Positions 19,043 through 59,390 of a stretch of DNA of 64,000 nucleotides are shown piece by piece. Origin of the DNA: Candidatus Woesearchaeota archaeon (GTDB taxonomy: Archaea; Nanobdellota; Nanobdellia; Woesearchaeales; 21-14-0-10-32-9); the NCBI GenBank assembly GCA_041660865.1, contig JBAZVO010000005.1:62626-126625 (forward strand). Direction: 5' to 3'. The notes under the pieces are model-generated. The model was given only the letters and a program-made list of their open reading frames with translations, ran no database searches and was not told where the DNA came from. The position numbers and the translations under genes were made by a program. The first letter of the stretch is position 1, and each line of letters begins with the position of its first letter.

Positions 19043-19117
19043 GGGCCTGTAGCGCAGCCTGGATAGCGCGACAGCCTTCTAAGCTGTAGGTCGCGGGTTC
19101 GAATCCCGTCGGGCTCA
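19043..19117 (+). tRNA. tRNA-Arg (anticodon TCT)
   Basis: Cloverleaf folded by hand: acceptor GGGCCTG/CGGGCTC, anticodon arm ACAGC-CTTCTAA-GCTGT, T arm GCGGG-TTCGAAT-CCCGT. Confidence 0.9.
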
Positions 19118-19401
19118 TAGTATGGAACGGCGGTTTAAAACACGTATTTGTGTTTGCCGTCGGATTCATTTTTTTAATTCTTGTATTTTATGGTTTTTTT
19201 GAGAGAGTTTTATGTGTGCTGTATTGTGGCGTCTGGTTTTTTGTTTTTCATAGTCTTTGTTTTCATGGTTTTTTTTTGTTTTTTTTCCCTCTTTTCGTTT
19301 TTTTATTCTTTTTTTTTTGGGTTCGGTTTTTATTCTTTTATTTAGATGATTTGTATTTTTCTGCGATATATATTTAAAATAGAAATTTAACTAAACTATT
19401 T

Positions 19402-22341: not shown

Positions 22342-22474
22342 GCGGAGGTAGCCAAGCGGCCTAAGGCGACCGCCTGCAGAAGCAGACAACTGCTGTATTG
22401 AGCACGAACGTCAAGTTAGTGCGATGATAAAACTAGACAGCGGTTATCCGGGGGTTCGAATCCCTCCCTCCGCT
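22342..22474 (+). tRNA. tRNA-Cys (anticodon GCA) with a 59-nt intron (22380-22438) after position 37
   Basis: Acceptor GCGGAGG/CCTCCGC, anticodon stem ACCGC/GCGGT, loop CTGCAG..A, T arm GGGGG-TTCGAAT-CCCTC. The discriminator is U, as expected for tRNA-Cys. Confidence 0.8.
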
Positions 22475-22513
22475 CTTTTTTTTCGTTACTTCTCAGTGAC
22501 AATATACGAAAGA

Positions 22514-22521
22514 TTTAAATA
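22514..22521 (+). promoter_or_regulatory. Candidate TATA box (TTTAAATA) with a purine-rich BRE, for the thrS leader transcript
   Basis: GAAAGATTTAAATAAG is repeated exactly at 29158-29173 ahead of another cassette gene. It lies about 47 nt upstream of the leader ORF's ATG. Confidence 0.45.
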
Positions 22522-22567
22522 AGAGTTATGTTTCTATAATAAAATAATTAGTAAATATGGTGGTATT

Positions 22568-22648
22568 ATGAATGCAAACAAAAATAATGGAAAAGGAATT
22601 TTGTCTGAATTAGTTATTTCTCTAAATACCACTACAACCACTGCATGA
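22568..22648 (+). CDS. Candidate thrS leader peptide MNANKNNGKGILSELVISLNTTTTTA
   Basis: A 26-codon ORF with five consecutive Thr codons (ACC ACT ACA ACC ACT, 22628-22642). An SD-like GGTGG lies 5 nt upstream. It sits 222 nt upstream of the thrS start. Confidence 0.55.
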   Translation: MNANKNNGKGILSELVISLNTTTTTA

Positions 22649-22810
22649 ATGCAGCTCATTGTTATTCTATCTTAAAAAGAATCTCTGATTCTTGTTTTGT
22701 CTGGAGCTGGTAACTCTATAGATAAAATCTCAATCTTTAATTCTGATAAAAAACTCTGACTGAAAATTATAATTTTGAAAATAAGAAATAAGACTATAAA
22801 AAATAAAACA

Positions 22811-22862
22811 CGGAGGTAACGAAAATCAAAGATTTTCGAAACCTCCTCAATAAATTCGGAGG
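22811..22862 (+). promoter_or_regulatory. Decoy-SD / anti-SD hairpin plus the true thrS SD
   Basis: GGAGGTAACGAAAATC-AAA-GATTTTCGAAACCTCC forms a 14-bp stem with a 2x2 internal loop (22811-22845). ACCTCC (22840-22845) can alternatively pair with the thrS SD GGAGGT (22857-22862), which is 8 nt before the ATG at 22871. Confidence 0.55.
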
Positions 22863-22870
22863 TAATAAAA

Positions 22871-24316
22871 ATGGAAAATAATCAAAAATTTAAGAATAGA
22901 GAAGAAATAGTAAAAGAAATTCAAAGTAGGCATCTTATTTTAATGCCTGATGGACGAGAAATGCTGCTGGATCTAAAAAATCCTGAAGAAGTAAAAAGAA
23001 TACTAGATGAAGTTGGTGACGAAGAATTGAAAGCGTATATGCTCTCTGAAGAATTGAAGGGACAGCCAAAGGAAGAGCCACCTTCAATTAAAATGATGCA
23101 GCAACATGAACTCATAGGTTATGAGCCGTCGAGTGATTCAGGAAATTTTAGTATGTGGCCTAAAGGAAATTTAATATTTAGTCTCCTAAGAGATTGGTCG
23201 CATGAAATTGCTGTGAATAGATTGCAGGCAATGCAGATTGAGTCACCAGTATTATATGATTGGTCAGACCCAGAAATTCAGGAACAAGCAGGCTCTTTCC
23301 ATGAGAGGCATTACATAGTGAAAGCTCCAGATGATGATAAGAAAGAATTCATCTTGAGATTTGCAGCAGACTTTGGTCTCTTCAAAATTATGAAGAAAGC
23401 CAATTTTAGCCACAAGATGCTTCCTGTAAGAATGTATGAATTCTCCAAAAGTTTCAGATATGAAAAAAGCGGAGAATTATCTGGACTAAAAAGACTTCGA
23501 GCATTTCACATACCTGACTTGCATTGCTTCTGCAAAGATATTCCTCAAGGATGGGTTGAATATCAGCATCTCTACAAAGAGTATGTTAATCTTGCAAAAG
23601 GAGCAGGCGTTAAGTATGCAGTTGGATTTAGGATTGTGGAAGAGTTCTACAAAGAGCACAAAGAGAGACTTGTTGAGTTGCTGCAATACTCAAAGAGACC
23701 CGCATTTATAGAAGTGCTCTCAAAGATGAAGCATTATTGGGCTGTAAAAAATGAATTCCAAGGAATTGATAGCGTCGGTGGAAATATGCAACTGGTAACT
23801 GTGCAACTTGATGTCAAAGATGCGAAAGTCTATGGCATCAACTATGTGGATAGTGACGGAAGCAAAAAAGGATGCATAATTTGTCATTCAAGTATTGGCA
23901 GTATTGAAAGATGGATTTATGCAATACTTGAGGAAGCTTTGAAAAAAGAAAAACCTCAGCTTCCACTTTGGCTCTCTCCATCGCAGATAAGATTGATTCC
24001 AGTAAATCAAGCACAGATTGAATATTGTAAGTCGCTTAAATTTGACGGAGTTAGAATTGACATCGATGACAGCAATGATAGTTTAGGAAAGAAAATTGCG
24101 AATGCAAATAAAGAATGGATTCCTTACGTTGCAGTCATCGGCAATAAAGAAATGGAATCGGGCAAACTGATGGTGAACATAAGAGAAGATGGAAGCAAAA
24201 AAGAATTTTCCATCGTTGAACTTGAGAATGAGATTAAATCTAAATCTCAAGGAATGCCATTTAGACCTTTGCCTGTGCCTAAACTTGTAAGCCAAAGACC
24301 AATATTTTACGGATAA
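22871..24316 (+). CDS. thrS: Threonyl-tRNA synthetase, catalytic plus anticodon-binding domains only (no N-terminal editing domain)
   Basis: Class II motifs (FSKSFRYEKSGELSGLKRLRAFHIPDLHCF; GCIICHSSIGSIERWIYAILE). At 481 aa it is short, and the N-terminal ~70 aa do not resemble an editing domain. Confidence 0.85.
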   Translation: MENNQKFKNREEIVKEIQSRHLILMPDGREMLLDLKNPEEVKRILDEVGDEELKAYMLSEELKGQPKEEPPSIKMMQQHELIGYEPSSDSGNFSMWPKGNLIFSLLRDWSHEIAVNRLQAMQIESPVLYDWSDPEIQEQAGSFHERHYIVKAPDDDKKEFILRFAADFGLFKIMKKANFSHKMLPVRMYEFSKSFRYEKSGELSGLKRLRAFHIPDLHCFCKDIPQGWVEYQHLYKEYVNLAKGAGVKYAVGFRIVEEFYKEHKERLVELLQYSKRPAFIEVLSKMKHYWAVKNEFQGIDSVGGNMQLVTVQLDVKDAKVYGINYVDSDGSKKGCIICHSSIGSIERWIYAILEEALKKEKPQLPLWLSPSQIRLIPVNQAQIEYCKSLKFDGVRIDIDDSNDSLGKKIANANKEWIPYVAVIGNKEMESGKLMVNIREDGSKKEFSIVELENEIKSKSQGMPFRPLPVPKLVSQRPIFYG

Positions 24317-24347
24317 GAACTTTTTTCTTTCTTTTTTTCTTTTGATA

Positions 24348-24477
24348 TTTCTTGTTGGATTTTTTCGATCTCAAATTTTTCTTCAGTCGATAAAAAACAG
24401 GGATTTGAACGCTTTTGTAGTATTCCCTCCCTCCGCTCCTTATTTTAATTACTTGAAAGTGATAAACTTATAAATTG
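24348..24477 (+). repeat. Cassette-boundary repeat A1, containing an exact 15-nt copy of the tRNA-Cys 3' end
   Basis: TCCCTCCCTCCGCTC at 24424-24438 is identical to 22461-22475. The downstream TTACTTGAAAGTGATAA resembles TTACTTCTCAGTGACAA that follows the tRNA. Confidence 0.85.
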
Positions 24478-24499
24478 ATTTGTATTTCTTTTTAAAATA

Positions 24500-25168
24500 A
24501 TGGCTAATTTGAAACAAGATTTATTTATGGCTCATACGGCTTTGATGAAAAATATTGACTTGGGTGGCTTTTTAAGAGGATACACTTTACTTGATGTTGG
24601 CTCAGATTCTTTTGTGTATAAATCTAATTTAGAAGAAAAAATTATCAAAGTTTATGTCCCTCTTAGATTGACTTCAGGACAAGATTTTACTGTCGAGGAT
24701 GTTTTTGAAACTGTTAAATTATATAATTCTGATACATTGAAAGCAAAGAAAGCAGTAGAAGAAAGTTGGGGCGCGGTCTCTGATGAAATCAGAAGCATTG
24801 TCCTTAATGGCGTAAAATATGATGTTTTGGTTTCTATTTTGCCTCAAGGCGATGTGATGGGTATGGTGGGAGGTGAAGCTCTTGCTATTGGTCAGAGATA
24901 TATTGAAGGAAATAATTTAAAACAAATATTTGAACACAGTGAGAGAATTAAAGGGTTTGAAAATTTTTATAATGCACCAAATGAAAGTTCAACTAAAATT
25001 CGTCAAATGCTCGCTAATGCATCTATGTTAATAAATAACGCTGTCGGTGTTCCGTTTCAAATAGATAATAAAAATGTCAAGCCTGTTTTGTATTCTGATA
25101 ACAAAGTTCTTGATTTAATAGTAACTGACTTAGCAGATTCTATTGTTGCCAATTATTGTATTTTGTAA
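24500..25168 (+). CDS. Hypothetical protein (cassette gene)
   Basis: An ORF of 222 aa between repeats A1 and A2, with no recognised motif. Confidence 0.45.
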   Translation: MANLKQDLFMAHTALMKNIDLGGFLRGYTLLDVGSDSFVYKSNLEEKIIKVYVPLRLTSGQDFTVEDVFETVKLYNSDTLKAKKAVEESWGAVSDEIRSIVLNGVKYDVLVSILPQGDVMGMVGGEALAIGQRYIEGNNLKQIFEHSERIKGFENFYNAPNESSTKIRQMLANASMLINNAVGVPFQIDNKNVKPVLYSDNKVLDLIVTDLADSIVANYCIL

Positions 25169-25204
25169 TTGTTTTTTCTAAAAGTGTTTGCTTTGAATTT
25201 CTTA

Positions 25205-25337
25205 GTTTTTTTGTTGGATTTCTTCGAACCCAATTTTTTCTTCAGTCGATGCGAATTCGGGATTTGAACGCTTTTGTTATCTTTCCTCCCTCCGCTTCTT
25301 CACTTTTAAGTGATAACAAATCGAAATATTTATAAGT
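25205..25337 (+). repeat. Cassette-boundary repeat A2
   Basis: It aligns with A1 over about 130 bp at roughly 80% identity by eye (TTGTTGGATTT..TTCTTCAGTCGAT..GGGATTTGAACGCTTTTGT). Core CCTCCCTCCGCT is at 25285-25296. Confidence 0.85.
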
Positions 25338-25358
25338 CAGAAGAGATTATTTAATAGA

Positions 25359-25874
25359 ATGTTGAGAGTTGAACCGAATCTACCATATGCTGGAATAGTA
25401 GTTGATTTTAAACTATTGAGAAATGAGCTTGTAAAAGTGTATTTTACAAATATTCTTGGACGTGATCCTAGTATCTATGAGTGGGGCACTTGCGGTTTAT
25501 CACAAGATGATTTGCTGGTTGGCTTATCTAAATCGATTCCTGGGAAAGCTAATGTTGGTGTACCTCATATTGTTGTTTCATTTCCACATGTTACTGCAGT
25601 CTATAGGTGGGGAAATCCTTCTGAATCTAATGAACGAGAAACAAATATTTATCGTTTAGGTTTAGGTAAAACTGAAGAATTGACGGAAATAATATTTCCA
25701 GAACCAAAATTTCCTTTTGAGGTAGGATGTCCAGCAGAGATACATATTATTGGTAGGGAGATGGGATTTCGAAGTACAGCAAATACATTGGATGAGTATA
25801 TGAGGATGGCGGTACCAATTGGAACTTCAATACCTATAGCAAATTCTAATATGATTTATCAATCACGTAGATAA
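25359..25874 (+). CDS. Hypothetical protein (cassette gene)
   Basis: An ORF of 171 aa between A2 and A3. Confidence 0.45.
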   Translation: MLRVEPNLPYAGIVVDFKLLRNELVKVYFTNILGRDPSIYEWGTCGLSQDDLLVGLSKSIPGKANVGVPHIVVSFPHVTAVYRWGNPSESNERETNIYRLGLGKTEELTEIIFPEPKFPFEVGCPAEIHIIGREMGFRSTANTLDEYMRMAVPIGTSIPIANSNMIYQSRR

Positions 25875-25879
25875 TAAAA

Positions 25880-26040
25880 AATTCCCGCTTCGAACGCTTT
25901 CACGAAGTGAAACAAAGCAAAACGAAGCTTTGCGTGCACAGAAAATTTTTAATTTTCTCGTGGCTCGGAGCTTTAGCGACTGAGGTTTTGTTATCTTCCC
26001 TACCTCCGCTCCTTTTTATTCTACTTTTCCGACGGTATAA
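25880..26040 (+). repeat. Cassette-boundary repeat A3 (hairpin-rich long form)
   Basis: GCTTCGAACGCTTT, small hairpins (TTTCAC-GAA-GTGAAA), TAGCGACTGAGGTTTTGTTATCTTCCC. Core TCCCTACCTCCGCTC is at 25997-26011, with 1 mismatch. Confidence 0.8.
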
Positions 26041-26106
26041 TTGTGTTAATTAAGATATAGTTTCTGAATTAATGTTTAAAATATTAGAAAATTAAAAAAA
26101 CAGTTT

Positions 26107-26706
26107 TTACTTTTCGCATAACGCGATGTTCCAAACATTTCCTTTTTTTAAGTGGACTGATGAGAAATGCTGTTTTAGTAGTTTTTCAAACTGCGAGCTG
26201 GTCCAGTTTTGTAAATGCCCGGGAGAATTTCCAAAATCTGAGATGTATTTTCCTCTAATAAAATTTCCTAATCTGAAATATGGTTCATTTGGAACAGAAA
26301 AAATACTTTGTTTTTTCATAACTCTTTTAGCTTCATCTAAAAAAAGATGGGGGTGTTCTTGATGCTCTAATACTTCAGTAGCTATAACAAGATCGAAAGA
26401 GTTATTTTCAAAAGGGAGAGAATATCCGTTGCCAGTTATTGCTTTAAAGTTATATGTTTTACTACAAAAATTTATTTTTTCTGCAGATATGTCTATTCCA
26501 GTTACATCGTACCCATTTAATGTTGAAATGTAGTTTGTGATTTCTCCTTGTCCGCAACCTATGTCTAATACTGTTTTTGCATTTGTTTCTAATATTAATT
26601 GGTTTAGGTTTGAAAAATAAGTTTTTACTAGATATTTAATGATTGGATTGCCACTTCTTACATGATTGTAAAAATCTTTTTCTTCCATTTTTTTTATGAA
26701 AAACAA
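26107..26706 (-). CDS. Class I SAM-dependent methyltransferase (cassette gene)
   Basis: VLDIGCGQGE motif I and FDLVIATEVLEH. Confidence 0.75.
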   Translation of the reverse strand: MFFIKKMEEKDFYNHVRSGNPIIKYLVKTYFSNLNQLILETNAKTVLDIGCGQGEITNYISTLNGYDVTGIDISAEKINFCSKTYNFKAITGNGYSLPFENNSFDLVIATEVLEHQEHPHLFLDEAKRVMKKQSIFSVPNEPYFRLGNFIRGKYISDFGNSPGHLQNWTSSQFEKLLKQHFSSVHLKKGNVWNIALCEK

Positions 26707-26749
26707 AGGCGTTTATAAAACTTTCCTTTATTAATCACTTAATAGTAGT

Positions 26750-26912
26750 TTCAAACCCAGAATTTTGCTCTCGTCGATGTAAATTCCTGCTTCGAACGTT
26801 TCAACGACAGTTGAAGCTCGGAACGCTTTTACGCAAGTAAAAGTTCGGAACTTTGGTGACTGAATTAGCGACTGAGGTTTTGTTATCTTCCCACTTTTCG
26901 CTAACGTTCTAA
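26750..26912 (+). repeat. Cassette-boundary repeat A4 (long form, related to A3)
   Basis: It shares AATTCCTGCTTCGAACG and TTAGCGACTGAGGTTTTGTTATCTTCCC with A3. The hairpins are kept with different sequence (TTCAAC-GACA-GTTGAA; CTTTTAC-GCAA-GTAAAAG). The core has decayed to TTCCCACTTTTCGCT. Confidence 0.75.
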
Positions 26913-26914
26913 AT

Positions 26915-27739
26915 CTATTCCAATTTCTTCTTCTCTTCTCGTTTCGGCAAAAAGTTATTTTTAGAAACTATGCTTTTTCCGAGGTTCAATTCGAGATCTT
27001 CTCGTGCTCTTTTAGCGATGTTGCCTCCGATGTTTGCTGACTCTTTGCACTCTTCGAGTCCTTTGGAATCTTTAACTTTAGTAATATCTGTTGTAGCTTT
27101 TTCTCCAAGCATGGTAAAGATTAACTCCCAATCAGTCATGTGATCGCGCAAATTCTGATTTTGTTTCTTCAGTTCTTTGAATTCTTTGTATTCGCCAACT
27201 GTTTTTCCAAAAGTCGCTTTAGAAATCTCGTTTGTCAGTATTGCGAATTCTTGCTCAGTATTTACTTCTCTATTCTTCCATTCATCAGTTAATTCCTGTC
27301 GCACAGCAATTCCGCGAAGTCTTTTATCTATCCAGTCTTTTGGATAACCTTTCAATTCATAATACTCTTTGATTCTATCTTGCCCAAGTTCTGGATTCTC
27401 TATCTCTTCAATTCTTTCGTATCCGACTTGCGCAAGCCATAATTTGAATGGTTCTGCTTTCTTTGATGGGATAGATTGAATTATGCGAAATAATGATTTT
27501 GTGTTTGCACAATCTGTTTCATAAAATTTACCATCAGAAGAGGCCAATTTCAGTTGTCGACAATTTGTCGATAACTCGACTCCTTGCTCCAATTCTCTTT
27601 TTTTTAATCTGTACCAGTAGTCTTTTGGGTCTGTACTTTCAGTAAGAACAGCAACAACATCTACAACTGAGAAATACCATTCATTATCATACATTATTCT
27701 TCTGATTTTTTGGTCCTGGAATACAGCTATTTTGTTCAT
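26915..27739 (-). CDS. Bro-N / DinD-like (phage antirepressor-type) DNA-binding protein
   Basis: N-terminal Bro-N pattern (IRRIMYDNEWYFSVVDVVAVLTES..DPKDYW) and a DinD-like C-terminal region. The start is set at MNKIAVF because a TATA-like element lies inside the longer ORF. Confidence 0.65.
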   Translation of the reverse strand: MNKIAVFQDQKIRRIMYDNEWYFSVVDVVAVLTESTDPKDYWYRLKKRELEQGVELSTNCRQLKLASSDGKFYETDCANTKSLFRIIQSIPSKKAEPFKLWLAQVGYERIEEIENPELGQDRIKEYYELKGYPKDWIDKRLRGIAVRQELTDEWKNREVNTEQEFAILTNEISKATFGKTVGEYKEFKELKKQNQNLRDHMTDWELIFTMLGEKATTDITKVKDSKGLEECKESANIGGNIAKRAREDLELNLGKSIVSKNNFLPKREEKKKLE

Positions 27740-27796
27740 AGTTACAGAAAAGCATATCTTGTTTAAATATTTTGAGTGTAAATTTGTCCAGTGCAT

Positions 27797-27895
27797 CGAC
27801 TCAAATTTTCTGCTTCGTTCGATTTTGTTCTCTTTCCTTCGCTACTCTTAATTCACTGGTCAGAATATGTCGAAACATTTATATAATACCTTAAT
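27797..27895 (+). repeat. Cassette-boundary repeat A5 (decayed) plus a TATA-like CATTTATATAA
   Basis: CTGCTTCGTTCGATTTTGTTCTCTTTCCTTCGCTACTC aligns to the GCTTCGAACGCTTTTGTTATCTTCCCTCC..CGCT consensus. Confidence 0.6.
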
Positions 27896-27929
27896 TTAGG
27901 TATGATTGTACTATAAATAAGGTATTTGT

Positions 27930-28556
27930 ATGTTGACGCCGAAACAAATTAGAATATTTGAAGTGTTTTTGAGAAAACCTTACAAGGAAGTTACATATAA
28001 GGAAATAAAGGAGTTTTCAAGAGAAAAATCAAATTCTATTATTCAAACTGCGTTAATAAAGTTTCTTTCTGACGAACTTGTTATGAAGAGAGGTGTAGGA
28101 AATATTAATTTGTACTCGATAAATTTTGAGAATAGTTCAGTTTTTGCGTACTTTGACATATTAATAAAAGAAAAAACTCCAAAATTATTAAGGGCTAGCT
28201 TGAAGATAATAAGAGAAGAACTCTCAAACGTAGAATTTATTTCAATAGTTATTTTTGGTTCGTATGCGGAAGGAAAACAAAAAGAAAAATCGGATCTGGA
28301 CGTTGCGATTTTTGTGAATTCTGTAAATGATAAAAAAAGTTGCGAGTTCGCGATGAAATCGGCGGAGCTTAAATCAATATTGCCATTGGATGTTCATGTC
28401 ATAACTAAGAATGAGATGCGACAAATGCTCAAAGATAAAAATGAGAATTTAGGAAAGCAGATAGCTTGCAAACATCTTGCGGTTTATAATCCGATAATTT
28501 TTTATTCCATACTTGCTGAGGGGATAAATAATGGATTCAAAATTATATATTCATAG
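27930..28556 (+). CDS. wHTH plus minimal nucleotidyltransferase (MNT-type antitoxin-like)
   Basis: GSYAEGKQKEKSDLDVAIFV (G-S...D-x-D NTase signature). It overlaps the downstream HEPN gene by 26 nt. Confidence 0.75.
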   Translation: MLTPKQIRIFEVFLRKPYKEVTYKEIKEFSREKSNSIIQTALIKFLSDELVMKRGVGNINLYSINFENSSVFAYFDILIKEKTPKLLRASLKIIREELSNVEFISIVIFGSYAEGKQKEKSDLDVAIFVNSVNDKKSCEFAMKSAELKSILPLDVHVITKNEMRQMLKDKNENLGKQIACKHLAVYNPIIFYSILAEGINNGFKIIYS

Positions 28557-28998
28557 GGCGGAAAATGAGATAAAACTTGCTGGAATAATTTTTGTTATAA
28601 GTGAAGAACCAAGCATACAAAAAGAAACTTTTAAAGTTAATGATCCTGAAACATATTACAGTGCAGTTATTGCACACAGCTATTATAGTATATTTTATGG
28701 TGCGAAAGCATATCTGGCAAAGAAAGGAATTGATGTTTCTGCTCCAGAAGAACATAAGAAAGCATTTGTTGAATTCAAGAAATTTGTTGAGAGTGGAGAA
28801 CTCGACGTTGAACTCCTTAAAATATATCAAGAAGCGCTGGTTAGAGCAGAGTATTTGCTAGGACTCTTCAAAGAAGAGAAGAAGAAACGAGGAGAATTTA
28901 CTTATCGAACAATGCCTCAAGCGAACAAAGAGCCAGCAAAAGAGAGCATAGAACATGCTAAGACTTTCTTCAAACACATGTATGCTATTTTAGGATAA
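28531..28998 (+). CDS. HEPN domain protein (partner of the MNT gene)
   Basis: The HEPN-like helix pattern AHSYYSIFYGAKAYLAKKGI...HKKAFVEF. I saw no clear RX4-6H motif. Confidence 0.6.
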   Translation: MDSKLYIHRAENEIKLAGIIFVISEEPSIQKETFKVNDPETYYSAVIAHSYYSIFYGAKAYLAKKGIDVSAPEEHKKAFVEFKKFVESGELDVELLKIYQEALVRAEYLLGLFKEEKKKRGEFTYRTMPQANKEPAKESIEHAKTFFKHMYAILG

Positions 28999-29029
28999 GA
29001 CTGGTTTGTTATCTTTTATGTTTTGTATT

Positions 29030-29177
29030 GTCGAATTTTTTATGTTGGTTTTTTCGAATTCATTTTTCATCGTTTGATGAGATGAATTTTTCGCTTCGTT
29101 CGTTTTTGTTATTATTCTTTTTATGCTATTTTATTACTCAAAAGTGGTTAAAAATAGAAAGATTTAAATAAGTTCTT
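29030..29177 (+). repeat. Cassette-boundary repeat A6 (decayed) plus promoter element
   Basis: TTGTTGGTTTTTTCGAA..., hairpin AATTCAT-TTT-TCATC-GTTT-GATGA-G-ATGAATT, CGCTTCGTTCGTTTTTGTTATTATTC, then GAAAGATTTAAATAAG, which is identical to 22510-22525. Confidence 0.6.
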
Positions 29178-29192
29178 GAGTTACACATATTT

Positions 29193-29864
29193 ATGTTATT
29201 GAATGGAAGAATATTTGAACCTGAGGGGAATAATAATCATTATTTTCAAAAAACGTTGAAGTATTACAATTCTTTTGAAAGTGTGGTTTATGCTAAAGCT
29301 GCTTATGACGTGATCAATAGCAAAATTGGCTTTTCGAATATTAATTCAGTTAAAATTATGGCTTGCGGATTAGATCTGGCGGGTCAGGTTATTGCATACA
29401 CTCATCCTAATATTCAAGTTCACACATCTGATATTGATACGAATGTAATTGGTGAATTATATTATAAAAATCCCTTCAAGAATTTGGAATTGAGTGTTGA
29501 AGATGCAGAGAAAAATAGGAAAGAACACATAGAATGTTTTGACCTTGTCTATATGAGTATGAGTCTTCATCATATGTATAATCCTGAAATCGTGATAAAA
29601 AATATGTTATCTTATTCAAAAAAGCATGTTATGATTGTAGATTATTTAAGGGAGATGGAAGAAGATGCATATAATAATATACTCTCTCTTGAAAAATCAG
29701 GGGTACTTTATGGTTCTTTAGTATCAGATTCAATTCAAGCATCTTTGTCGAGGAAAGAATATGGAGAAATAGTTGAATCTTTAAATTTGAAAAATGTATT
29801 AGAATTTAGCAGAGAAAAAGAAGGATTGAAAACAAGTGCAGCATTTCTTATGCTTGAAAAATAA
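29193..29864 (+). CDS. Putative SAM-dependent methyltransferase-like protein (cassette gene)
   Basis: Weak motif I (IMACGLDLAG) and DLVYMSMSLHH. Tentative. Confidence 0.45.
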   Translation: MLLNGRIFEPEGNNNHYFQKTLKYYNSFESVVYAKAAYDVINSKIGFSNINSVKIMACGLDLAGQVIAYTHPNIQVHTSDIDTNVIGELYYKNPFKNLELSVEDAEKNRKEHIECFDLVYMSMSLHHMYNPEIVIKNMLSYSKKHVMIVDYLREMEEDAYNNILSLEKSGVLYGSLVSDSIQASLSRKEYGEIVESLNLKNVLEFSREKEGLKTSAAFLMLEK

Positions 29865-30091
29865 TATTTTTTGGGATAAACCTCTGAATGTGTATCTGGT
29901 TTAAATATTTTGAGTGCAAATTTATTTAATATTATTTTCTAAATTTATTAATTCGTTCTTGTTTGTTGTATTTCATTTTATTTGCTTCTTTTTCTTTCTT
30001 TTTGTTTATTTTCATTTAATTGTTATAATTCTTCTAAATTGAGAAATTTGGCGTTTTTTTCCGTAACGTGTATAAATGGAGGAGTATTACT

Positions 30092-31124: not shown

Positions 31125-31595
31125 ATGTTTCATTTTTCAAAAAAAGTAGAGTTTAAAGAACAATTAGAAGTCACGAGATCTTTTCTCGAAAGTAATGTGG
31201 GTGCTTTTCCAAAGTACAAGTGTCATTTATCTGCAGAATTTTTAAAAAGAACAATGGGTTTAGAAGTTAAAGTCGGCATATATATTCCTGAAAATATTAG
31301 AATATATTCGGAGCAGGATTTAAATATAATGTTGTGTTCGGGCCATGCATGGAATTATTCTCCTGAACAAAATAGAGATGTTGATCTCACATATGATCAA
31401 TTTACTAATAATTCAAGCGATAGGATTAAAATTTTGAAAGTAAATGATAAATCGTTAAGGGAATTATCTGATGGTTGGATTCAACATATGATTGTTCAAA
31501 ATGGTGAGAGTTTTAAATCAACAATTGATTATCTTGTGGATTCGTTTAAAAAAGAAGAATTTAAACTCATCGCCAATTATCTAGCTCGTCATTAA
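31125..31595 (+). CDS. Hypothetical protein, possibly of the transglutaminase-like Cys-His-Asp fold
   Basis: Spacing of KCH...GHAWN...DLTYD. Weak. Confidence 0.3.
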   Translation: MFHFSKKVEFKEQLEVTRSFLESNVGAFPKYKCHLSAEFLKRTMGLEVKVGIYIPENIRIYSEQDLNIMLCSGHAWNYSPEQNRDVDLTYDQFTNNSSDRIKILKVNDKSLRELSDGWIQHMIVQNGESFKSTIDYLVDSFKKEEFKLIANYLARH

Positions 31596-31917
31596 CTTTA
31601 GCGACCCATCTTGAGGTTGTATCTTTTATTCTTTGACGTAGTTCTTCGCGTTTTTTTAATTGATAATGAAACAAGTAGCCTCCTGAATCTAAGTTTTCTT
31701 GTCGTCTTAATAATATTTCTTTTTCATGAAGGCTTTTTACGCATCTTTGAATTGTGCTTAATTCTAGTTTTAAATCTTTAGAAAGTTCTTGCGTTGTAAA
31801 CCATTCTTTGTTTGTTGCAAGCATCATTTTAACAAGATTAAATTCGGCTTTAGTTAAACCTAGGCTACATTTTATTATTTCATCAAGATTAAATTCTTTG
31901 CATGCAAAATCTATCAT
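31567..31917 (-). CDS. Winged-helix transcriptional regulator
   Basis: wHTH pattern (WFTTQELSKDLKLELSTIQRCVKSLHEKEILLRR). Confidence 0.55.
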   Translation of the reverse strand: MIDFACKEFNLDEIIKCSLGLTKAEFNLVKMMLATNKEWFTTQELSKDLKLELSTIQRCVKSLHEKEILLRRQENLDSGGYLFHYQLKKREELRQRIKDTTSRWVAKVNDELDNWR

Positions 31918-53143: not shown

Positions 53144-53239
53144 GAGTATTCATATAGATGAGCTTTTGGAGTTATATTTTTTTTGTAAAAATTCGAAACT
53201 TTTAAAAGAGGATTGAGTATCCTTATAAAAACAGCGTGT

Positions 53240-53311
53240 GCGAGAGTAGTATAGTGGTTAGTATTTGGCCTTGCCAAGGCTGAGACACGGGTTCGAATCC
53301 CGTCTCTCGCA
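53240..53311 (+). tRNA. tRNA-Gly (anticodon GCC)
   Basis: Acceptor GCGAGAG/CTCTCGC, anticodon loop TTGCCAA, T arm CACGG-GTTCGAATC-CCGTC. Confidence 0.85.
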
Positions 53312-53337
53312 TGCGAAACACGTGCTAAGAGGGTGTT

Positions 53338-53443
53338 GAGCCCGTAGCTTAGCCTGGTGGAGCGCCGGTCTTATATGACTTCGTTTCATTGCAGACGGCT
53401 CGAAGAGAGCCGGTGGTCGGGAGTTCAAATCTCCCCGGGCTCA
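53338..53443 (+). tRNA. tRNA-Ile (apparent anticodon TAT) with a 32-nt intron (53376-53407)
   Basis: Acceptor GAGCCCG/CGGGCTC, anticodon stem CCGGT/GCCGG, loop CTTATA..A, T arm GGGAG-TTCAAAT-CTCCC. The anticodon call assumes the canonical 37/38 intron position. Confidence 0.6.
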
Positions 53444-53539
53444 TGAAACTATGAGGCTGGGGGCTGAGAGCAAAAGCGACTCTGTCCCCGGGCTCACCTT
53501 CATCAATAATTAATATTCATTGGACTGTAAGATCAGGTT

Positions 53540-53614
53540 GCTCCTGTGGTGTAGTCCGGCCAATCATTTCGCCCTTTCGAGGCGAAGACTCGGGTTCGAA
53601 TCCCGGCGGGAGCA
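53540..53614 (+). tRNA. tRNA-Glu (anticodon TTC)
   Basis: Acceptor GCTCCTG/CGGGAGC, anticodon arm TCGCC-CTTTCGA-GGCGA, T arm TCGGG-TTCGAAT-CCCGG. Confidence 0.88.
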
Positions 53615-53661
53615 CTTCTTTTTTTATTAAGAATTAGGGCATTTTCTTTAGAAATACATTA

Positions 53662-54300
53662 TTATTTTGTGAAAACTATTTTCGAATAATAATCAATTAG
53701 CTTTTGACCTAAATCAGTAATGCTCGCAGATTGTCTGTGTTTGTATTCATTAAATTCGGCAACGCATGTTTTCCACATGTCTTCTCCAAATTTAATTCCT
53801 TGTTCAACTAATTCAGGATTTTCTAAATCTTCTGGTTGCCATTTTCTGTGAATTAAACTAAGAGCGTAGTCCTTGTTAGTCCAATTATCTCTATAAATTA
53901 GATTTGTATAATCCAAACCAAAAAGATTAACTTTTTTGTTTAATTTTTCTCCAAGGATATTCCAATCTGCTTGTTTAGGGATGAAAATACCTTCTGATTC
54001 AAGTGTATTTATTGGAGCAACAAAAAATCCATATTTCTTGATGGCAAATTCTAAACCTATATCTTTTCCGTCTGTTAAAAAACCTAAATTATATTTTTGT
54101 ATAAATTCTCCTTTTGAAAGTTTTCCCGCAGAAACATCTTCGGCCTTCTGCATTAAATAATTATGTGTTATTGCTTCTACGCCATACAAAAGTAATCCAT
54201 GATTAAAACCGTGGTTGACATCTGTGCCAAACTTCAAATTTTCCAGAGTTAAGGAGTTCAAAGTATTTTTTAACATTATGTCTAAATCAGGCAAGTTCAT
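53662..54300 (-). CDS. Hypothetical protein (cassette gene)
   Basis: An ORF of 212 aa between tRNA-Glu and repeat B1. Confidence 0.45.
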   Translation of the reverse strand: MNLPDLDIMLKNTLNSLTLENLKFGTDVNHGFNHGLLLYGVEAITHNYLMQKAEDVSAGKLSKGEFIQKYNLGFLTDGKDIGLEFAIKKYGFFVAPINTLESEGIFIPKQADWNILGEKLNKKVNLFGLDYTNLIYRDNWTNKDYALSLIHRKWQPEDLENPELVEQGIKFGEDMWKTCVAEFNEYKHRQSASITDLGQKLIDYYSKIVFTK

Positions 54301-54365
54301 GATGACTTGTAGTTATTTCTAATTTATAAATGTTTTGTTTTTTATCACTTATAAGTAATTATTAT

Positions 54366-54441
54366 TTGTTTCGTTTTTCCTCTCTAACCTGCGAAATGCA
54401 CGGCGGGAGCACTTCTTTTTTTATTAACAAAAAGAGCATTA
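54366..54441 (+). repeat. Cassette-boundary repeat B1, containing an exact 27-nt copy of the tRNA-Glu 3' end plus trailer
   Basis: CGGCGGGAGCACTTCTTTTTTTATTAA at 54401-54427 is identical to 53604-53630. It is preceded by the arm TTCGTTTTTCCTCTCTAACCTGCGAAATGCA. Confidence 0.9.
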
Positions 54442-54507
54442 AGTATTTGTTCTTGTTGAATCAGTTTTCCAATAATTATATAATTATTATAAGTCTTCTA
54501 TTTGTTT

Positions 54508-54873
54508 ATGGAATTACATGCTCTAATATCTGCCTTGAGAAAATCTTGGAATAAAGATACTTGTCATCTTTCTATATCAAATAACTGGTCTAAAGATAAT
54601 AGGGCATATGGTCAATGTGTTGTCACTGCATTAATTGTACAAGATTATTTTGGTGGTGAAATTCTTCATTGCGAGCACACACATCATCACTGGAATAAAA
54701 TATCCTCAGGAGAGGAAATTGACCTTACAAAAGAACAATTCTCACTAGGAACAAAAATATGCATAGATGATAAACCTTCTCGAGAATATTTATTAAATAA
54801 TCCTGGAGCAATCAAATCTAAAACTATGGAAAGATATTTATTATTAAAAATGCGTGTTGACGCAAATTTCTAA
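54508..54873 (+). CDS. Conserved hypothetical protein (possibly YunG-like; cassette gene)
   Basis: GQCVVTALIVQDYFGGEIL...HHWNKI...IDLTKEQF. The family name is from memory only. Confidence 0.45.
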   Translation: MELHALISALRKSWNKDTCHLSISNNWSKDNRAYGQCVVTALIVQDYFGGEILHCEHTHHHWNKISSGEEIDLTKEQFSLGTKICIDDKPSREYLLNNPGAIKSKTMERYLLLKMRVDANF

Positions 54874-55002
54874 TCCATAACTACACTCACCAAAAGGCAG
54901 AAATAAACACTATGCCCAATCTATGCTCTTATGTATACTTGATATGTCTCGCTTCCAGAATCAATACTTTAAATTTTTATGGAATGTTGCTGAAAAATAA
55001 AA

Positions 55003-55050
55003 TTTCGTTTTTCTGTTCTAACTATGAAATGCACGGCGGGAGCGCTTTAT
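55003..55050 (+). repeat. Cassette-boundary repeat B2
   Basis: TTTCGTTTTTCTGTTCTAACTATGAAATGCACGGCGGGAGCGC has the same arm as B1. Core CGGCGGGAGC is at 55034-55043. Confidence 0.85.
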
Positions 55051-55111
55051 AATCTTCAATTTTTGGGATTGATATTTTTTTAAAATCAAGATTTATTTCT
55101 TTCTTTTTACA

Positions 55112-55762
55112 TTATATAATTAATCTCTTCAAAACATCAAATGCTCTAGAAGAATCTTCATCTTTCACAATTAAATTAAGTTCTGTGTAAGTAGAAACTA
55201 TGTCTATTACACTTATATTTTCCCAATTTAATGCTTTTGTAATTACATAAAACAAGCCGATTCCTTCTACGGCAGATTCTGATATATTTACAGAAACTAT
55301 GCTCAGGTCATTTATTTTTTTCTTGATTAATCTTTTTGGAATTATTTTTAATATTTTAGACATATTTTTTTCATTGGTAATTATCATAAGTTCATTAATT
55401 CCTTGAGTAATTGTTAAAAGATCTCCTTTTTTAAAATTCATTATTTTGTATATTTTTCTTATATATTCAGAGATGTTGTCGTCCTTGTAAAGTACGATTT
55501 CGACAACATTTGATTTTAGATTAATTTCAGTATCTTTATTGAACTTTAAATTAATAACTGGTTTTACTTCAAGCCCTTCAGCCATTCTTCTTATTGCAAG
55601 ATTAACTGCTGAGAATTTTACTTTCTTTTTTAATTCCTGTTCTAATTCTGGAATCATCTTTTGAGCTAGTGCAGCATTATTAATTATTCCATCTGACAGC
55701 GATTCCTCTAAAAAAGGCTTCTTTTCTATTATTTTTCTTGTTAAATGGGCTACTGTTGGCAT
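55112..55762 (-). CDS. Hypothetical protein (possibly with an ACT-like C-terminal domain)
   Basis: An ORF of 216 aa. The domain guess is weak. Confidence 0.4.
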   Translation of the reverse strand: MPTVAHLTRKIIEKKPFLEESLSDGIINNAALAQKMIPELEQELKKKVKFSAVNLAIRRMAEGLEVKPVINLKFNKDTEINLKSNVVEIVLYKDDNISEYIRKIYKIMNFKKGDLLTITQGINELMIITNEKNMSKILKIIPKRLIKKKINDLSIVSVNISESAVEGIGLFYVITKALNWENISVIDIVSTYTELNLIVKDEDSSRAFDVLKRLII

Positions 55763-55854
55763 TTTTATCAGTTTCTAAAAAATGTAAATTATTTTACATA
55801 AAGTAAATATATTATATAAAGCTTTCTAATTAGTACAAATAGGAGGTTTACAAA

Positions 55855-56364
55855 ATGGGAATAGAAGAAGAAATAGTAAGAGCGGAACAATGGCATGTCC
55901 AAGATGAACAAAGAGGGAGAGATCTTGAATGGAATAATAGACCAAAAGAAGTTACAAGATTTCACGAACGTCTAATTGAAAATATGAATAGAATAATAAC
56001 TGTTGCTGACGCAGGAAAACTTGATTATGTAACAAATTTAGGTGGATTCAGAATATATTTAGTGGAAAAAGAAAATATTCCTTACTACATGGAAGATTTT
56101 GAGGGACAGTATCATGCATGCGGCGAATACTTTCATTACAGGAGACTTAATGAATCTTTAATTGGAACTACGTTTTATGCTCTGCGATGCAGAGAAGGAT
56201 TGGAAAAAAGTACATCTACGGAAAATGCCGCATCAGCAGTACAACAACTCAGGAGTTTATCAACAATACCTTTCCAGTCTACAGGTGATATTCCTGCAAT
56301 TGTAAGAAAAATTGATGACGTAAGAGAGAATTATTTGGGAATAGAAAAACTACGAATGTATTAA
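55855..56364 (+). CDS. Hypothetical protein
   Basis: An ORF of 169 aa preceded by AGGAGG. Confidence 0.4.
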   Translation: MGIEEEIVRAEQWHVQDEQRGRDLEWNNRPKEVTRFHERLIENMNRIITVADAGKLDYVTNLGGFRIYLVEKENIPYYMEDFEGQYHACGEYFHYRRLNESLIGTTFYALRCREGLEKSTSTENAASAVQQLRSLSTIPFQSTGDIPAIVRKIDDVRENYLGIEKLRMY

Positions 56365-56434
56365 TTTTTTATTTTTAACTAAATAGAAATTATTCAAACA
56401 ATACAAAAAAGTGATTAAATATGAAAAAATTAGA

Positions 56435-56752
56435 TTAGTTAGTTTTTTTGAATGGCGGAGAATTAACTAAAACTGCTTTGAAACTTCCTTTGAAAGTATA
56501 TTCAATATTAGCAGAAATAAAAACAACATCTCCTTTTTTTGCAATCATCTTATTGTTCACTATTAATTTGCCTTTTAAAATATAATAAACCCTATCGCTT
56601 GTCGTTTTTGTTGTTTCGTCATGATTTTCTGCAGTGCTTACGGCTAAACTTACTTTATCGCTATCATTTGCTGTAAGCAGATTTAATACAGAATATGACT
56701 CAGATATTTTTCTAATAACTCCATCTTCAGATTTTATAATTTTTATCGTCAT
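56435..56752 (-). CDS. Cupin-fold protein
   Basis: RVYYILKGKLIVNNKMIAKKGDVVFISANIEYTFKG is a beta-barrel pattern. Confidence 0.55.
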   Translation of the reverse strand: MTIKIIKSEDGVIRKISESYSVLNLLTANDSDKVSLAVSTAENHDETTKTTSDRVYYILKGKLIVNNKMIAKKGDVVFISANIEYTFKGSFKAVLVNSPPFKKTN

Positions 56753-56809
56753 AATATATTATTAATTAAAGAAGTTTTATATAAATTTAATGTCTTATTT
56801 GTTAATATT

Positions 56810-56855
56810 TTATGATTTAAGTGGCGGGAGTATTTTCTTTTATTATTAACGAAGT
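56810..56855 (+). repeat. Cassette-boundary repeat B3 (decayed)
   Basis: GTGGCGGGAGTATTTTCTTTTATTATTAACGAAG aligns to CGGCGGGAGCACTTCTTTTTTTATTAAC. Confidence 0.65.
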
Positions 56856-56912
56856 GAACAATCGATTATTATTTTCAATATATTTTTAAATTCTAGACTT
56901 TGATAATTATGT

Positions 56913-57359
56913 ATGATTAAAAGAAACTATACTTCTGAAGATTTGAATAGTCATCATGCGATTGCAGTAATAATAAAAAATAAGAGAGGAGAAGTATTAA
57001 TGCAAGAACATGCAAAATATGGTTTTTGGACAATTCCATTAGGAAAAGTGCATCAAAAACAAACTATTGAAGAAGGATTAAAACAAGAAATGTTTGATGA
57101 ATGTAATATTTTAATAAAAGAGTTTAAAGAATTAAAAAATAAAAAATATTATTATAGTCGTTTAGGAAAAAGAATACTTGTTTCAGGTCATCTTTTTGAA
57201 ATATCTAAATTTGAAGGGAAAATTAAAAATAATGAATTTCAAAAACATAAACAACAGATTTTTTTATCAATTGATAAAATAAAACAACTTTCTTATCTGT
57301 CTGATTTAACGTTATTATATTTAGAAACGATCGGTATTAAACGAAAAGCAAAAATTTAG
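56913..57359 (+). CDS. NUDIX-like hydrolase (cassette gene)
   Basis: A partial Nudix box, GKVHQKQTIEEGLKQEMFDECNI. Confidence 0.5.
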   Translation: MIKRNYTSEDLNSHHAIAVIIKNKRGEVLMQEHAKYGFWTIPLGKVHQKQTIEEGLKQEMFDECNILIKEFKELKNKKYYYSRLGKRILVSGHLFEISKFEGKIKNNEFQKHKQQIFLSIDKIKQLSYLSDLTLLYLETIGIKRKAKI

Positions 57360-57360
57360 A

Positions 57361-57420
57361 GTTCGTTTTCCTGTTCCAGAAAACGAAATGCACGACGGAA
57401 GTATTTATTTTATTAACGAA
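57361..57420 (+). repeat. Cassette-boundary repeat B4 (decayed)
   Basis: GTTCGTTTTCCTGTTCCAGAAAACGAAATGCACGACGGAAGTATTTATTTTATTAACGAA has the same arm as B1/B2, with a degenerate core. Confidence 0.7.
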
Positions 57421-57504
57421 ATGGATTTTAAGAACGTGATTCATTTAGTTTTTTAATTTGCATTTTTATATTATTAGATAGAGGATTCTAGAAGAAAAAT
57501 ATCT

Positions 57505-58041: not shown

Positions 58042-58292
58042 AATTTTATTCTCTTTGTATTATTTTATGTTGATGGAATCTATGATTATTTATAAATTTT
58101 ATATTATTAACTATTTAATAGTAGATGTAAAATGAATGAACTTTCACATTTTTTTTTGTTTTTACAAAATAAAAATATGCAAAAGTAGTATGTCCTAATT
58201 TAATTTATGCAAAAACAACAATTAATAAAATTAATAAAAAAATTCTTAAATAGAAACATATTTGATAATAAAAAACCGTGGAGGGTTACAAA

Positions 58293-59390
58293 ATGAAAAA
58301 AAGTGTATTAAATAAACTTTCTCCAGAACTTAGAAATATGATTATTCTTGAGACAAATAAATCAACAGGAACATTAAGTAATAATGTAAAAAATTCTAAA
58401 ACTCCTGTCTCGACGTTTGCTCGAAAAACATTAAATCATACAAATGGTGGCGCCACAATGGAGGCAGCGTTATGGTTAAAAAATCATTTAGCTAAGGGTG
58501 GTAAACTCGTAATTACTCTTGCTGGAGCATTAAGCTCATTTCAAATAGGTGTTATGCTTGCAGAATTAATTAGACAAAACAAAGTTCATATGATTTCGGC
58601 AACGGGTGCAAACCATGAGGAATCATATTATAGGTATGTTGCGCATTCTCATTATGCAAATATTCCTAGATACACTGAATTGACGCCAAATCAGGAAGCA
58701 GAATTAAGAGATGCAGGTCTTAGAAGAATTACAGATACTTTTTTACCTGAGGATGAAAGTGTAAGAATTATGGAGCCTCATTTATTAAAAATGTGGAAAG
58801 ATGCTGCAATAAAAAAAGAAAGTTATTTTCCGCATGAATACTTTAGAAGATTATTCAAAGAAGGATTAATAAGTCCTGATCCGTTAGCCAATCCGGCTGA
58901 TTGTTGGGTACTTGCAGCTTTTGAAAAAAATATTCCAATAGTTGTTCCAGGTTTTGAAGATTCGACGATGGGAAATATTTTTTCAAGTTACACATACAAT
59001 GGTAAACATAAAATAAAAGGCGATGTATCTGTTGATCCAAGTGTTATGAAAACAGGACTTGAATATTTTCATTTAATGTATGATTGGTATATGGAAGAGA
59101 GCAAAAATACTCCAATTGCATTCTTGCAACTCGGTGGAGGAATTTCAGCAGATTTCCCAATATGTGTCGTTCCATCATTAAAACATGATTTAAAAGTAAA
59201 GAAAGTTAGAGATTGGGCAGGATTTATCGAAATAGGTTCGTCTCCAATGTCATATGGTTCTTATTCGGGAGCTGGTGGAAAAGAAAAAATTACATGGGAT
59301 AAATTATCGACTCAGAGTTATTATCAAATAATTCAAAGCGACGTAAATGTTGCATTTCCATGGATAGCTGCAGTTTTGCTTGACTTGTAA
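58293..59390 (+). CDS. Deoxyhypusine synthase-like protein, with Ala at the position of the catalytic Lys
   Basis: DHS-family segments (ITLAGALSS, ISATGANHEES, PGFEDSTMGN, LGGGISADF, GSYSGAGGKEKITWDKL). The ATG at 58293 is preceded by GGAGGG. Confidence 0.7.
   Translation: MKKSVLNKLSPELRNMIILETNKSTGTLSNNVKNSKTPVSTFARKTLNHTNGGATMEAALWLKNHLAKGGKLVITLAGALSSFQIGVMLAELIRQNKVHMISATGANHEESYYRYVAHSHYANIPRYTELTPNQEAELRDAGLRRITDTFLPEDESVRIMEPHLLKMWKDAAIKKESYFPHEYFRRLFKEGLISPDPLANPADCWVLAAFEKNIPIVVPGFEDSTMGNIFSSYTYNGKHKIKGDVSVDPSVMKTGLEYFHLMYDWYMEESKNTPIAFLQLGGGISADFPICVVPSLKHDLKVKKVRDWAGFIEIGSSPMSYGSYSGAGGKEKITWDKLSTQSYYQIIQSDVNVAFPWIAAVLLDL

Follow-up and report, generated by a model that had tools for sequence, protein, structure and literature searches.

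The 64-kb window analysed here is part of a 141,762-bp contig (JBAZVO010000005.1, assembly GCA_041660865.1) of a Candidatus Woesearchaeota archaeon. Downstream of a tRNA-Glu gene, it contains a tandem array of small gene units separated by copies of the 3' end of this tRNA that become more degenerate with distance. This array probably arose by serial site-specific integration at the tRNA gene, the enzyme having been supplied in trans or since lost. A recurrent process of accretion targeted at tRNA genes is strongly favoured over a one-off event. A preliminary description of this DNA had proposed such a general process. Its recurrence stands, because tRNA 3'-end copies are enriched in the window and a comparable unit exists in another genome (locus L133, below), but the mechanism is not a new one and corresponds to classical integration at tRNA 3' ends by integrases.

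The array is anchored by an intact tRNA-Glu(TTC) gene on the forward strand (53540-53615), identified with ARAGORN and matched by the Rfam tRNA model at 55.2 bits, which lies on the attB/attL side. The last 11 nt of this gene, with the discriminator context, and the following T-rich trailer of 16 nt make up the first copy of the repeat (copy 0, 53604-53630, forward strand). This 27-nt sequence (CGGCGGGAGCACTTCTTTTTTTATTAA) recurs exactly at 54401-54427, 797 nt downstream, as had been claimed from the letters alone and as the repeat search found independently. The similarity between the two copies extends to 40 nt at 90% identity. Exact direct repeats of at least 20 nt are rare: once low-complexity sequence is excluded, the whole window contains only this pair and one other, located inside a second array downstream of tRNA-Cys. 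In an Rfam scan of the array at low threshold, the tRNA was the sole match and the boundaries between units matched no Rfam family.

Four such boundaries, all intergenic and all on the forward strand, follow the tRNA. The cores of these boundaries, i.e., the stretches corresponding to the last 11 nt of the tRNA, start 786 (B1), 1419 (B2), 3207 (B3), and 3778 nt (B4) from the end of tRNA-Glu, and their identity to the tRNA falls monotonically along this series, from 11/11 through 10/11 and 9/11 to 8/11. B1 (54370-54427) consists of a right arm of 31 nt (54370-54400), the core (54401-54411), and the trailer. B2 (55003-55045) has an arm at 55003-55033 and a core at 55034-55044. B3 (56822-56860) has the core TGGCGGGAGTA and a T-rich trailer, with no recognisable upstream arm. 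B4 (57362-57440), the most distal and most decayed boundary that is still recognisable, has an arm (57362-57392), the core CGACGGAAGTA (57393-57403), and a trailer. The decaying series of copies described previously is therefore real, although the B4 core fits best at 57393, shifted rightward by one base from the position first given. The arm (TTCGTTTT...GAAATGCA) lies directly upstream of the core in B1, B2, and B4 and is missing from the tRNA; its presence in these three boundaries, already remarked upon, was verified over 31 nt. A non-tRNA arm in this position is what is expected of the attP arms carried by integrating elements.

These boundaries could in principle be chance matches, or copies of a terminator or regulatory module reused between genes, with no mobility involved. 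The T-rich tract at each of them could terminate archaeal transcription, judging from its composition. The statistics argue against chance. The 17-mer spanning the junction of arm and core (GAAATGCACGRCGGRAG) has three exact matches for 0.12 expected. In leave-one-out profile searches of the window, each boundary was retrieved as the top match outside the training set, with E=1.7e-8 for B1, 7.4e-7 for B2, 0.022 for B3, and 8.5e-5 for B4. B3 is the weakest boundary because it was retrieved without an arm, through the core and the T-rich trailer only (model positions 43-79). The exact repeats and the enrichment of tRNA 3'-end copies described below point in the same direction. Moreover, the core that recurs is the acceptor-stem strand of the tRNA itself, and the same pattern is found at tRNA-Cys and in other genomes (L130 and L133). 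We therefore regard an origin without mobility as very unlikely. The profile search found no further significant boundary distal to B4, e.g., near 58070. Matches of these sequences in public collections were uninformative: the junction 17-mer had 33 matches in IMG/VR, all in unrelated sequence, and the pattern of arm plus core had two in JGI metagenome contigs, both in high-GC bacterial sequence, all of which we attribute to chance.

Measured from core to core, the boundaries delimit blocks of 797, 633, 1788, and 571 bp, for a whole array of 3.8 kb. These units of 0.6-1.8 kb hold one to three genes each, in either orientation, and none of them encodes an integrase. Block 1, which is the youngest unit of the tRNA-Glu array, carries on the reverse strand a single gene (53662-54300) for a protein of 212 aa without Pfam family (locus tag WC758_06840). 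Block 2 contains a forward-strand gene of the YunG family (54502-54873; PF24585, E=8e-33). Block 3 has three genes: one for a DUF7523/ACT protein identified with Pfam (55112-55762, reverse), an open reading frame (ORF) for an unknown 169-aa protein (55855-56364, forward), and one with a weak Pfam match to cupin/EutQ-like proteins (56435-56752, reverse). Block 4 contains a forward-strand gene for a NUDIX hydrolase-like protein (56913-57359; PF00293, E=1.3e-8). The Pfam assignments agree with the content first listed for these blocks (unknowns, YunG-like, cupin, and Nudix-like proteins, in both orientations), with the proviso that the cupin match is weak. Exact protein matches carry the NCBI locus tags WC758_06840 and WC758_06845. 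Two paralogues of the DUF7523/ACT protein, 33% and 25% identical to the one of block 3, flank an intron-containing tRNA-Lys(CTT) in a Nanoarchaeota metagenome-assembled genome (MAG; L035, 5348-7642).

Small units, most of them with a single gene, that alternate with a recurring site recall integrons, in which folded attC sites delimit cassettes and an IntI-type integrase acts on them. Ghaly et al. are said to have reported integrons in archaeal MAGs in 2022. The boundaries do not behave in this way. When B1 to B4 were folded as DNA on both strands, we found no hairpins, and the z-scores relative to shuffled sequence were between -1.0 and +1.2. The boundaries are thus not attC sites, since they do not fold beyond shuffled sequence. 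An inverted repeat of the core type in B1 (GAAATGCA-CGGCGGG-AGCACTTC, 6/8 complementary) is weaker in B2 and B4, and we do not claim it. In addition, the genes of the array lie in both orientations, there is no intI beside it, and what recurs between the units is a copied tRNA 3' end. An integron or a true integron-like array with folded attC sites has, in our view, almost no chance of being the correct explanation.

A second array in the same window shows the same architecture and the same decay with distance, as the preliminary description had noted. Copies of the 3' end of the tRNA-Cys gene (22342-22474) lie downstream of it at 24424 (14/14), 25283 (13/14), and 25997 (13/14), with upstream arms of up to 94 nt that are 83% identical. 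Decayed remnants of arms and cores occur near 26889, 27830, 29111, and 29968, i.e., to about 30 kb, making this array (22342-30000) longer than the one at tRNA-Glu. The repeats of the two arrays are unrelated in sequence because each array echoes its own tRNA. We then considered all seven tRNA genes of the window. Their 3' 12-mers, with at most two mismatches, are echoed seven times for 0.24 expected over the 5 kb downstream on the same strand (P~8e-9), which is the enrichment downstream of tRNA genes that had been put forward as a check. The 5' 12-mers of the same genes, used as a control, gave one match, which is not significant.

Some features of these tRNA loci deserve separate mention. 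The cargo of the tRNA-Cys array includes methyltransferases, a Bro-N protein, and an NTase/HEPN pair. A prolyl-tRNA-synthetase-like gene in its first block (22871-24316) has a GC content of 0.39, compared with 0.30. The distal end of the tRNA-Cys island holds a gene for a small winged-helix protein (DnaD_N/TrmB-like, 31567-31917). TrmB-like genes also adjoin the integrase of one locus (L126) and occur inside the integrase-bearing element of another (L119); genes of this kind possibly form a module conserved among these elements. Two tRNA genes have echoes at short distance: a 10/12 copy of the 3' 12-mer lies about 40 nt downstream of tRNA-Arg (19106-19168), and an exact 12/12 copy follows an intron-containing tRNA after a spacer of 41 nt (53432-53496). 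These may be scars without cargo or products of deletions.

We found candidates for the integrating enzyme in related DPANN genomes, in one large and poorly described family of integrases that occurs at the same two tRNA species that anchor the arrays of the window. A tyrosine integrase of 379 aa with a PF00589 domain, encoded at L119, has more than 870 homologues, and the best 120 of these are all at least 48% identical. The homologues with names are few and come from DPANN or 'archaeon' MAGs. This type of integrase is distantly XerA-like (56 bits with NF040815, for a cut-off of 220), and the family has no match in IMG/VR, GenBank phages, or PLSDB plasmids. In three independent genomes, an intact integrase gene starts 51 nt after the tRNA, which is tRNA-Glu(TTC) in L120 and L121 and tRNA-Cys(GCA) in L123. 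In L121, the element measures about 7 kb, includes a Cdc6/Orc-like gene, and is bordered by an exact repeat of 11 nt (CGGACGGGGCA) in the same tRNA register as CGGCGGGAGCA in the window. Overall, the arrays of the window and the integrase elements of DPANN agree in the target tRNA species and, within it, in the register of the crossover (its last ~11 nt).

The integrase-bearing elements of relatives range from 4 kb to more than 11 kb. Their cargo includes a protein-primed family-B DNA polymerase, a PD-(D/E)XK nuclease, a Dam-like methylase, and SduA_C and AbiTii defence domains in L120 (10001-20961), a Cdc6/Orc-like ATPase and a second short integrase in L121 (9950-16997), and an N6/N4 methylase with a ResIII helicase in L123 (10001-21170). 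Such widely different cargo suggests that one integrase family serves several kinds of mobile elements. The spacer between the tRNA end and the integrase start is 51-59 nt in L119-L123, and in four integrase-bearing loci, including the one at tRNA-Cys, the motif GAAAGGGG occurs exactly 10 nt past the end of the tRNA or of its fragment and is followed by a TATA-like box. This motif could be an arm site of the integrase or a promoter element. The left arms of the window boundaries had seemed by eye to be decayed copies of this integrase-proximal region with GAAAGGGG and TATA, an impression that the profile test does not support.

Relatives of the cargo genes led to related arrays elsewhere. The 212-aa protein of block 1 has few homologues. 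One of them (P0003, 41% identical) is encoded on a 5.4-kb contig, L119, which reads in tRNA orientation as follows: a 33-nt fragment of the tRNA-Glu 3' end (T arm plus CGGCGGGAGC), the intact 379-aa integrase gene, five small genes, a second echo of the core (CGGCGGGGGAG, 9/11), and then P0003, inverted relative to the tRNA as is the block 1 gene in the window. An integrase-bearing element thus adjoins an integrase-less block, an arrangement that is compatible with mobilisation of the latter in the manner of cis-mobilizable elements (CIMEs) but does not prove it. Another homologue (P0004, 43% identical) belongs to an array in L130. The repeats at its boundaries measure 63-67 nt, are 95-97% identical, and have a G-rich core (GGTCGGGGGC) resembling the tRNA-Glu 3' end of the type found in L120.

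The closest homologue of the YunG-family protein of block 2 (74% identical) is encoded in Nanoarchaeia, on the 631-kb contig L133, where tRNA-Glu(CTC) lies 2.4 kb upstream of it. This isoacceptor gene is not the one of the window and has other surroundings, yet the two 3' ends are identical (CCCGGCGGGAGCA). Directly after this tRNA lies a unit of 567 bp with one gene of 119 aa and no integrase. It is flanked by a repeat made of 8 tRNA bases and 51 trailer bases that is 90% identical over 59 nt (BLAST: 93% over 54 nt, E=2.5e-17). The genes around the YunG homologue in L133 differ from those in the window, and no boundaries are recognisable around it.

We assign the tRNA-Glu array to serial integration because its features are those of the established signature of integration at tRNA genes, or tDNAs (PMC4383910). 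The process may be pictured as follows. Small circular DNAs would carry an attP-like site composed of a right arm of ~31 nt, a core of 11 nt identical to the tRNA, and a T-rich left arm. Recombination of the tyrosine-integrase type between this site and the 3' end of tRNA-Glu would restore an intact tRNA and leave a displaced 3'-end copy at the distal edge of the insert. The intact tRNA would then serve again for the following integration, so that older units would be pushed distally while their repeats decay. Repeated use of the regenerated tRNA is thus what would produce the gradient from proximal and young to distal and old units. Each unit would accordingly have entered as a small circle at the tRNA-proximal position. 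Since the units lack an integrase, the enzyme would have to act in trans, and it would likely come from the DPANN family that adjoins tRNA-Glu and tRNA-Cys in relatives. From the identity of the target and the register, we infer that this family, or a close relative of it, made the array of the window. The link is drawn from these two features because the sequences of the arms are not shared across genomes.

Several observations weigh against this reconstruction. The searches for integrases in this genome covered the window, in which no recombinase gene had been seen initially. This was borne out by Pfam scans, which found no PF00589 integrase domain in the genes of the tRNA-Glu array, in those of the tRNA-Cys array, or in the unannotated ORFs of the 64 kb, and by a six-frame search with a profile of the integrase family, whose best hit had E=0.23 and which revealed no fragment. 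Of the six integrase loci, two (L126 and L128) have no upstream tRNA, and the integrase family is therefore not exclusively linked to tRNAs. A profile of the GAAAGGGG motif and integrase-proximal arm finds nothing at the window boundaries, and, conversely, the profile of the window boundaries finds no homologous arms in L119, L130, and L133. The gene of another homologue of the block 1 protein (P0002, 62% identical, in L132) has no boundary on its one visible side; hence, this gene family does not always occur as a one-gene unit. Finally, we found no circular form, empty site, or presence/absence polymorphism. Contigs of the same sample in Logan match the window exactly, end at places unrelated to the boundaries, and carry no information on polymorphism.

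The absence of an integrase can also be read as the outcome of decay alone. The blocks would then be remnants of multi-kb integrase-bearing elements of the type found in L119-L123, from which the integrase and most genes were deleted in a streamlined genome strongly biased towards deletion, i.e., CIMEs formed without any later mobilisation. In that case the units would never have travelled as cassettes lacking an integrase, and they would by now be fixed. Formation of CIMEs by deletion is a documented route in bacteria (PMC5704250, PMC3146451), loss of the integrase after integration has been reported for archaeal elements (PMC8371274), and the sizes of the elements in relatives fit with such an origin. 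The distal arms and cores decay at similar rates, so that nothing suggests selection on the sites. Yet in two genomes the youngest units, whose repeats are preserved best, are the smallest and lack an integrase (in the window, 797 bp and an exact repeat of 27 nt; in L133, 567 bp and 54 nt at 93%). Moreover, none of the ~11 blocks of the two window arrays keeps an integrase fragment, and compact blocks that retain both arms would need many precise and independent deletions. We thus consider pure decay a possibility to be kept in mind, short of a probable explanation.

A further alternative dispenses with the integrase altogether: the units could have entered as small DNAs, circular or linear, by single crossovers of the Campbell type, mediated by the homologous recombination of the host over 27-59 nt of homology to the tRNA 3' end and trailer, or the boundaries could have been spread and homogenised by gene conversion. 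That the repeats reach far past the tRNA (the exact repeat of the window has 27 nt, and 51 of the 59 nt of that in L133 are trailer) and that the 64-kb window lacks an integrase are in line with this. A homology of 27 nt is very short for recombination of the RecA/RadA type, which counts against it. It also leaves unaccounted for that insertion has always kept to one tRNA register, namely the final 8-11 nt of the acceptor strand, that the insertion points coincide with the target of an integrase family adjoining the same tRNAs, and that an element-specific arm, typical of attP sites, lies upstream of the core. This alternative seems improbable to us.

The window is archaeal and AT-rich (~30% GC) and includes intron-containing tRNAs; the composition of the array is not anomalous. 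The window also contains genes that we take to be FtsZ, fibrillarin-like, Nop-like, ABCE1-like, and Elp3-like, ABCE1, Elp3, and FtsZ having been recognised by eye from the translations. The array is preceded by a tRNA cluster with tRNA-Gly (53239-53312) and an intron-containing tRNA (53338-53443), and a DUF192 gene adjoins this cluster. Distal to it, the segment 57505-59390 has no detectable boundaries and contains a gene for an unknown 178-aa protein (reverse strand) and a deoxyhypusine-synthase-like gene (58278-59390, forward strand); it is possibly an older segment of the island. Genes that are 77-87% identical to the deoxyhypusine-synthase-like gene along its whole length occur on 80 contigs labelled as many different bacteria of the Candidate Phyla Radiation and a few DPANN archaea. 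In GTDB genomes, none of the 80 loci shares the tRNA-Glu neighbourhood. Such high identity across diverse labels without shared synteny suggests that this gene has recently spread widely by horizontal transfer or that the labels of these MAGs are unreliable.

We compared the serial-integration array with known systems. In tDNA islands, an attP site with a tRNA 3' fragment recombines with the tRNA gene (Islander, PMC4383910). As Islander requires, the array has an intact tRNA and a displaced downstream 3' fragment in the same orientation. Islander also asks for a tyrosine integrase in each island, including each member of a tandem, which is missing here (no PF00589; six-frame E=0.23), and for a length of 2-200 kb, which the array attains as a whole (3.8 kb) but its single blocks do not. 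Close parallels in organisation are the ssrA islands of Dehalococcoides (McMurdie et al. 2011, PMC3146451). They are arranged in tandem downstream of one tRNA-like gene, have direct repeats of ~20 bp from its 3' end, and show directly upstream of each repeat a conserved motif that does not align with the target gene. Their order, proximal young and distal old, is the same, and 15 of them have no integration module and were proposed to be cis-mobilizable. In contrast, these islands are bacterial, target the transfer-messenger RNA, depend on a serine recombinase (DsiB), and span several kb with rdhA operons, whereas the window array has a DPANN host, tRNA-Glu and tRNA-Cys as targets, a candidate tyrosine recombinase, units of 0.6-1.8 kb, and no integration module in any of them.

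The tycheposon islands of Prochlorococcus (Hackl et al., bioRxiv 10.1101/2020.12.28.424599) also occur in a streamlined genome with few tRNA anchors and scattered partial tRNAs. There too, later integrations push earlier elements inward, and the tyrosine integrases cluster by target tRNA. Tycheposons differ in having their own integrase, of a specific clade, usually replication genes, and up to 10 kb of cargo, in marine bacteria; the array has neither integrase nor replication gene, its host domain is another, and its candidate integrase family is probably another as well. CIMEs, reviewed together with site-specific accretion in ICESt1/ICESt3 of Streptococcus (PMC5704250), retain attL and attR without genes for integration or transfer, stand in tandem at the 3' end of the target gene, and can be excised by the integrase of a neighbour. 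Likewise, boundaries flank every block of the window array and no recombinase is encoded. CIMEs originate from conjugative elements of Firmicutes, and experiments have shown that they are mobilised, whereas the units of the window are much smaller, have no known conjugation machinery, and are described from sequence.

In archaea, tyrosine recombinases integrate into tRNA genes, and tandem integration and loss of the integrase are documented, as is 'gene capture' of the SSV type (PMC8371274). In SSV-type integration, the attP site lies inside int, the gene is split, and Int(N) and Int(C) flank the element. No integrase fragments flank the blocks of the window, and the integrases of L120, L121, and L123 are intact. 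The same review of archaeal tyrosine recombinases mentions neither DPANN nor Nanoarchaeota. With integrons, the array shares mostly single-gene units without recombinase, a recurring site, and a proximal position of the newest unit. It differs from them in having no IntI, attI, or folded attC, in being headed by a tRNA, in the two orientations of its genes, and in a site that would be the double-stranded 3' end of a tRNA gene.

These likenesses raise a broader idea: DPANN archaea (Woesearchaeales/Nanoarchaeia) might keep a functional analogue of integrons, in which a dedicated tyrosine integrase acting in trans would excise integrase-less att cassettes of about one gene, held in a shared pool, and insert them again as minicircles at the 3' ends of tRNA-Glu and tRNA-Cys. 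We advance this only tentatively. It is compatible with the small size and lack of integrase of the youngest units in two genomes (797 bp in the window, 567 bp in L133), with the recurrence of the 212-aa and YunG families in different arrays and at two tRNA-Glu isoacceptor genes, and with the absence of integrase debris from all blocks.

Bacteria are well known to have tandem islands anchored at tDNAs with integrase-less members, and the same holds in outline for archaea. What is new is the host lineage, the integrase family with its Glu and Cys targets, and the extremely reduced size of the units. Little is understood of how DPANN archaea, whose genomes are tiny and which live in dependence on hosts, acquire and exchange genes. 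The locus and its relatives reveal tRNA-anchored islands that gather very small units of accessory genes. They provide a concrete route of gene flux, in which an abundant and uncharacterised family of tyrosine integrases (more than 870 homologues) is associated with the last ~11 nt of tRNA-Glu and tRNA-Cys. The short and well-defined sites could be of interest for the engineering of integrases. If the units are mobile in trans, they would amount to an integron-like system operating on double-stranded sites derived from tRNAs, and, were this integron-like reading true, ultra-small, host-dependent cells would have at their disposal a modular system for sampling genes.

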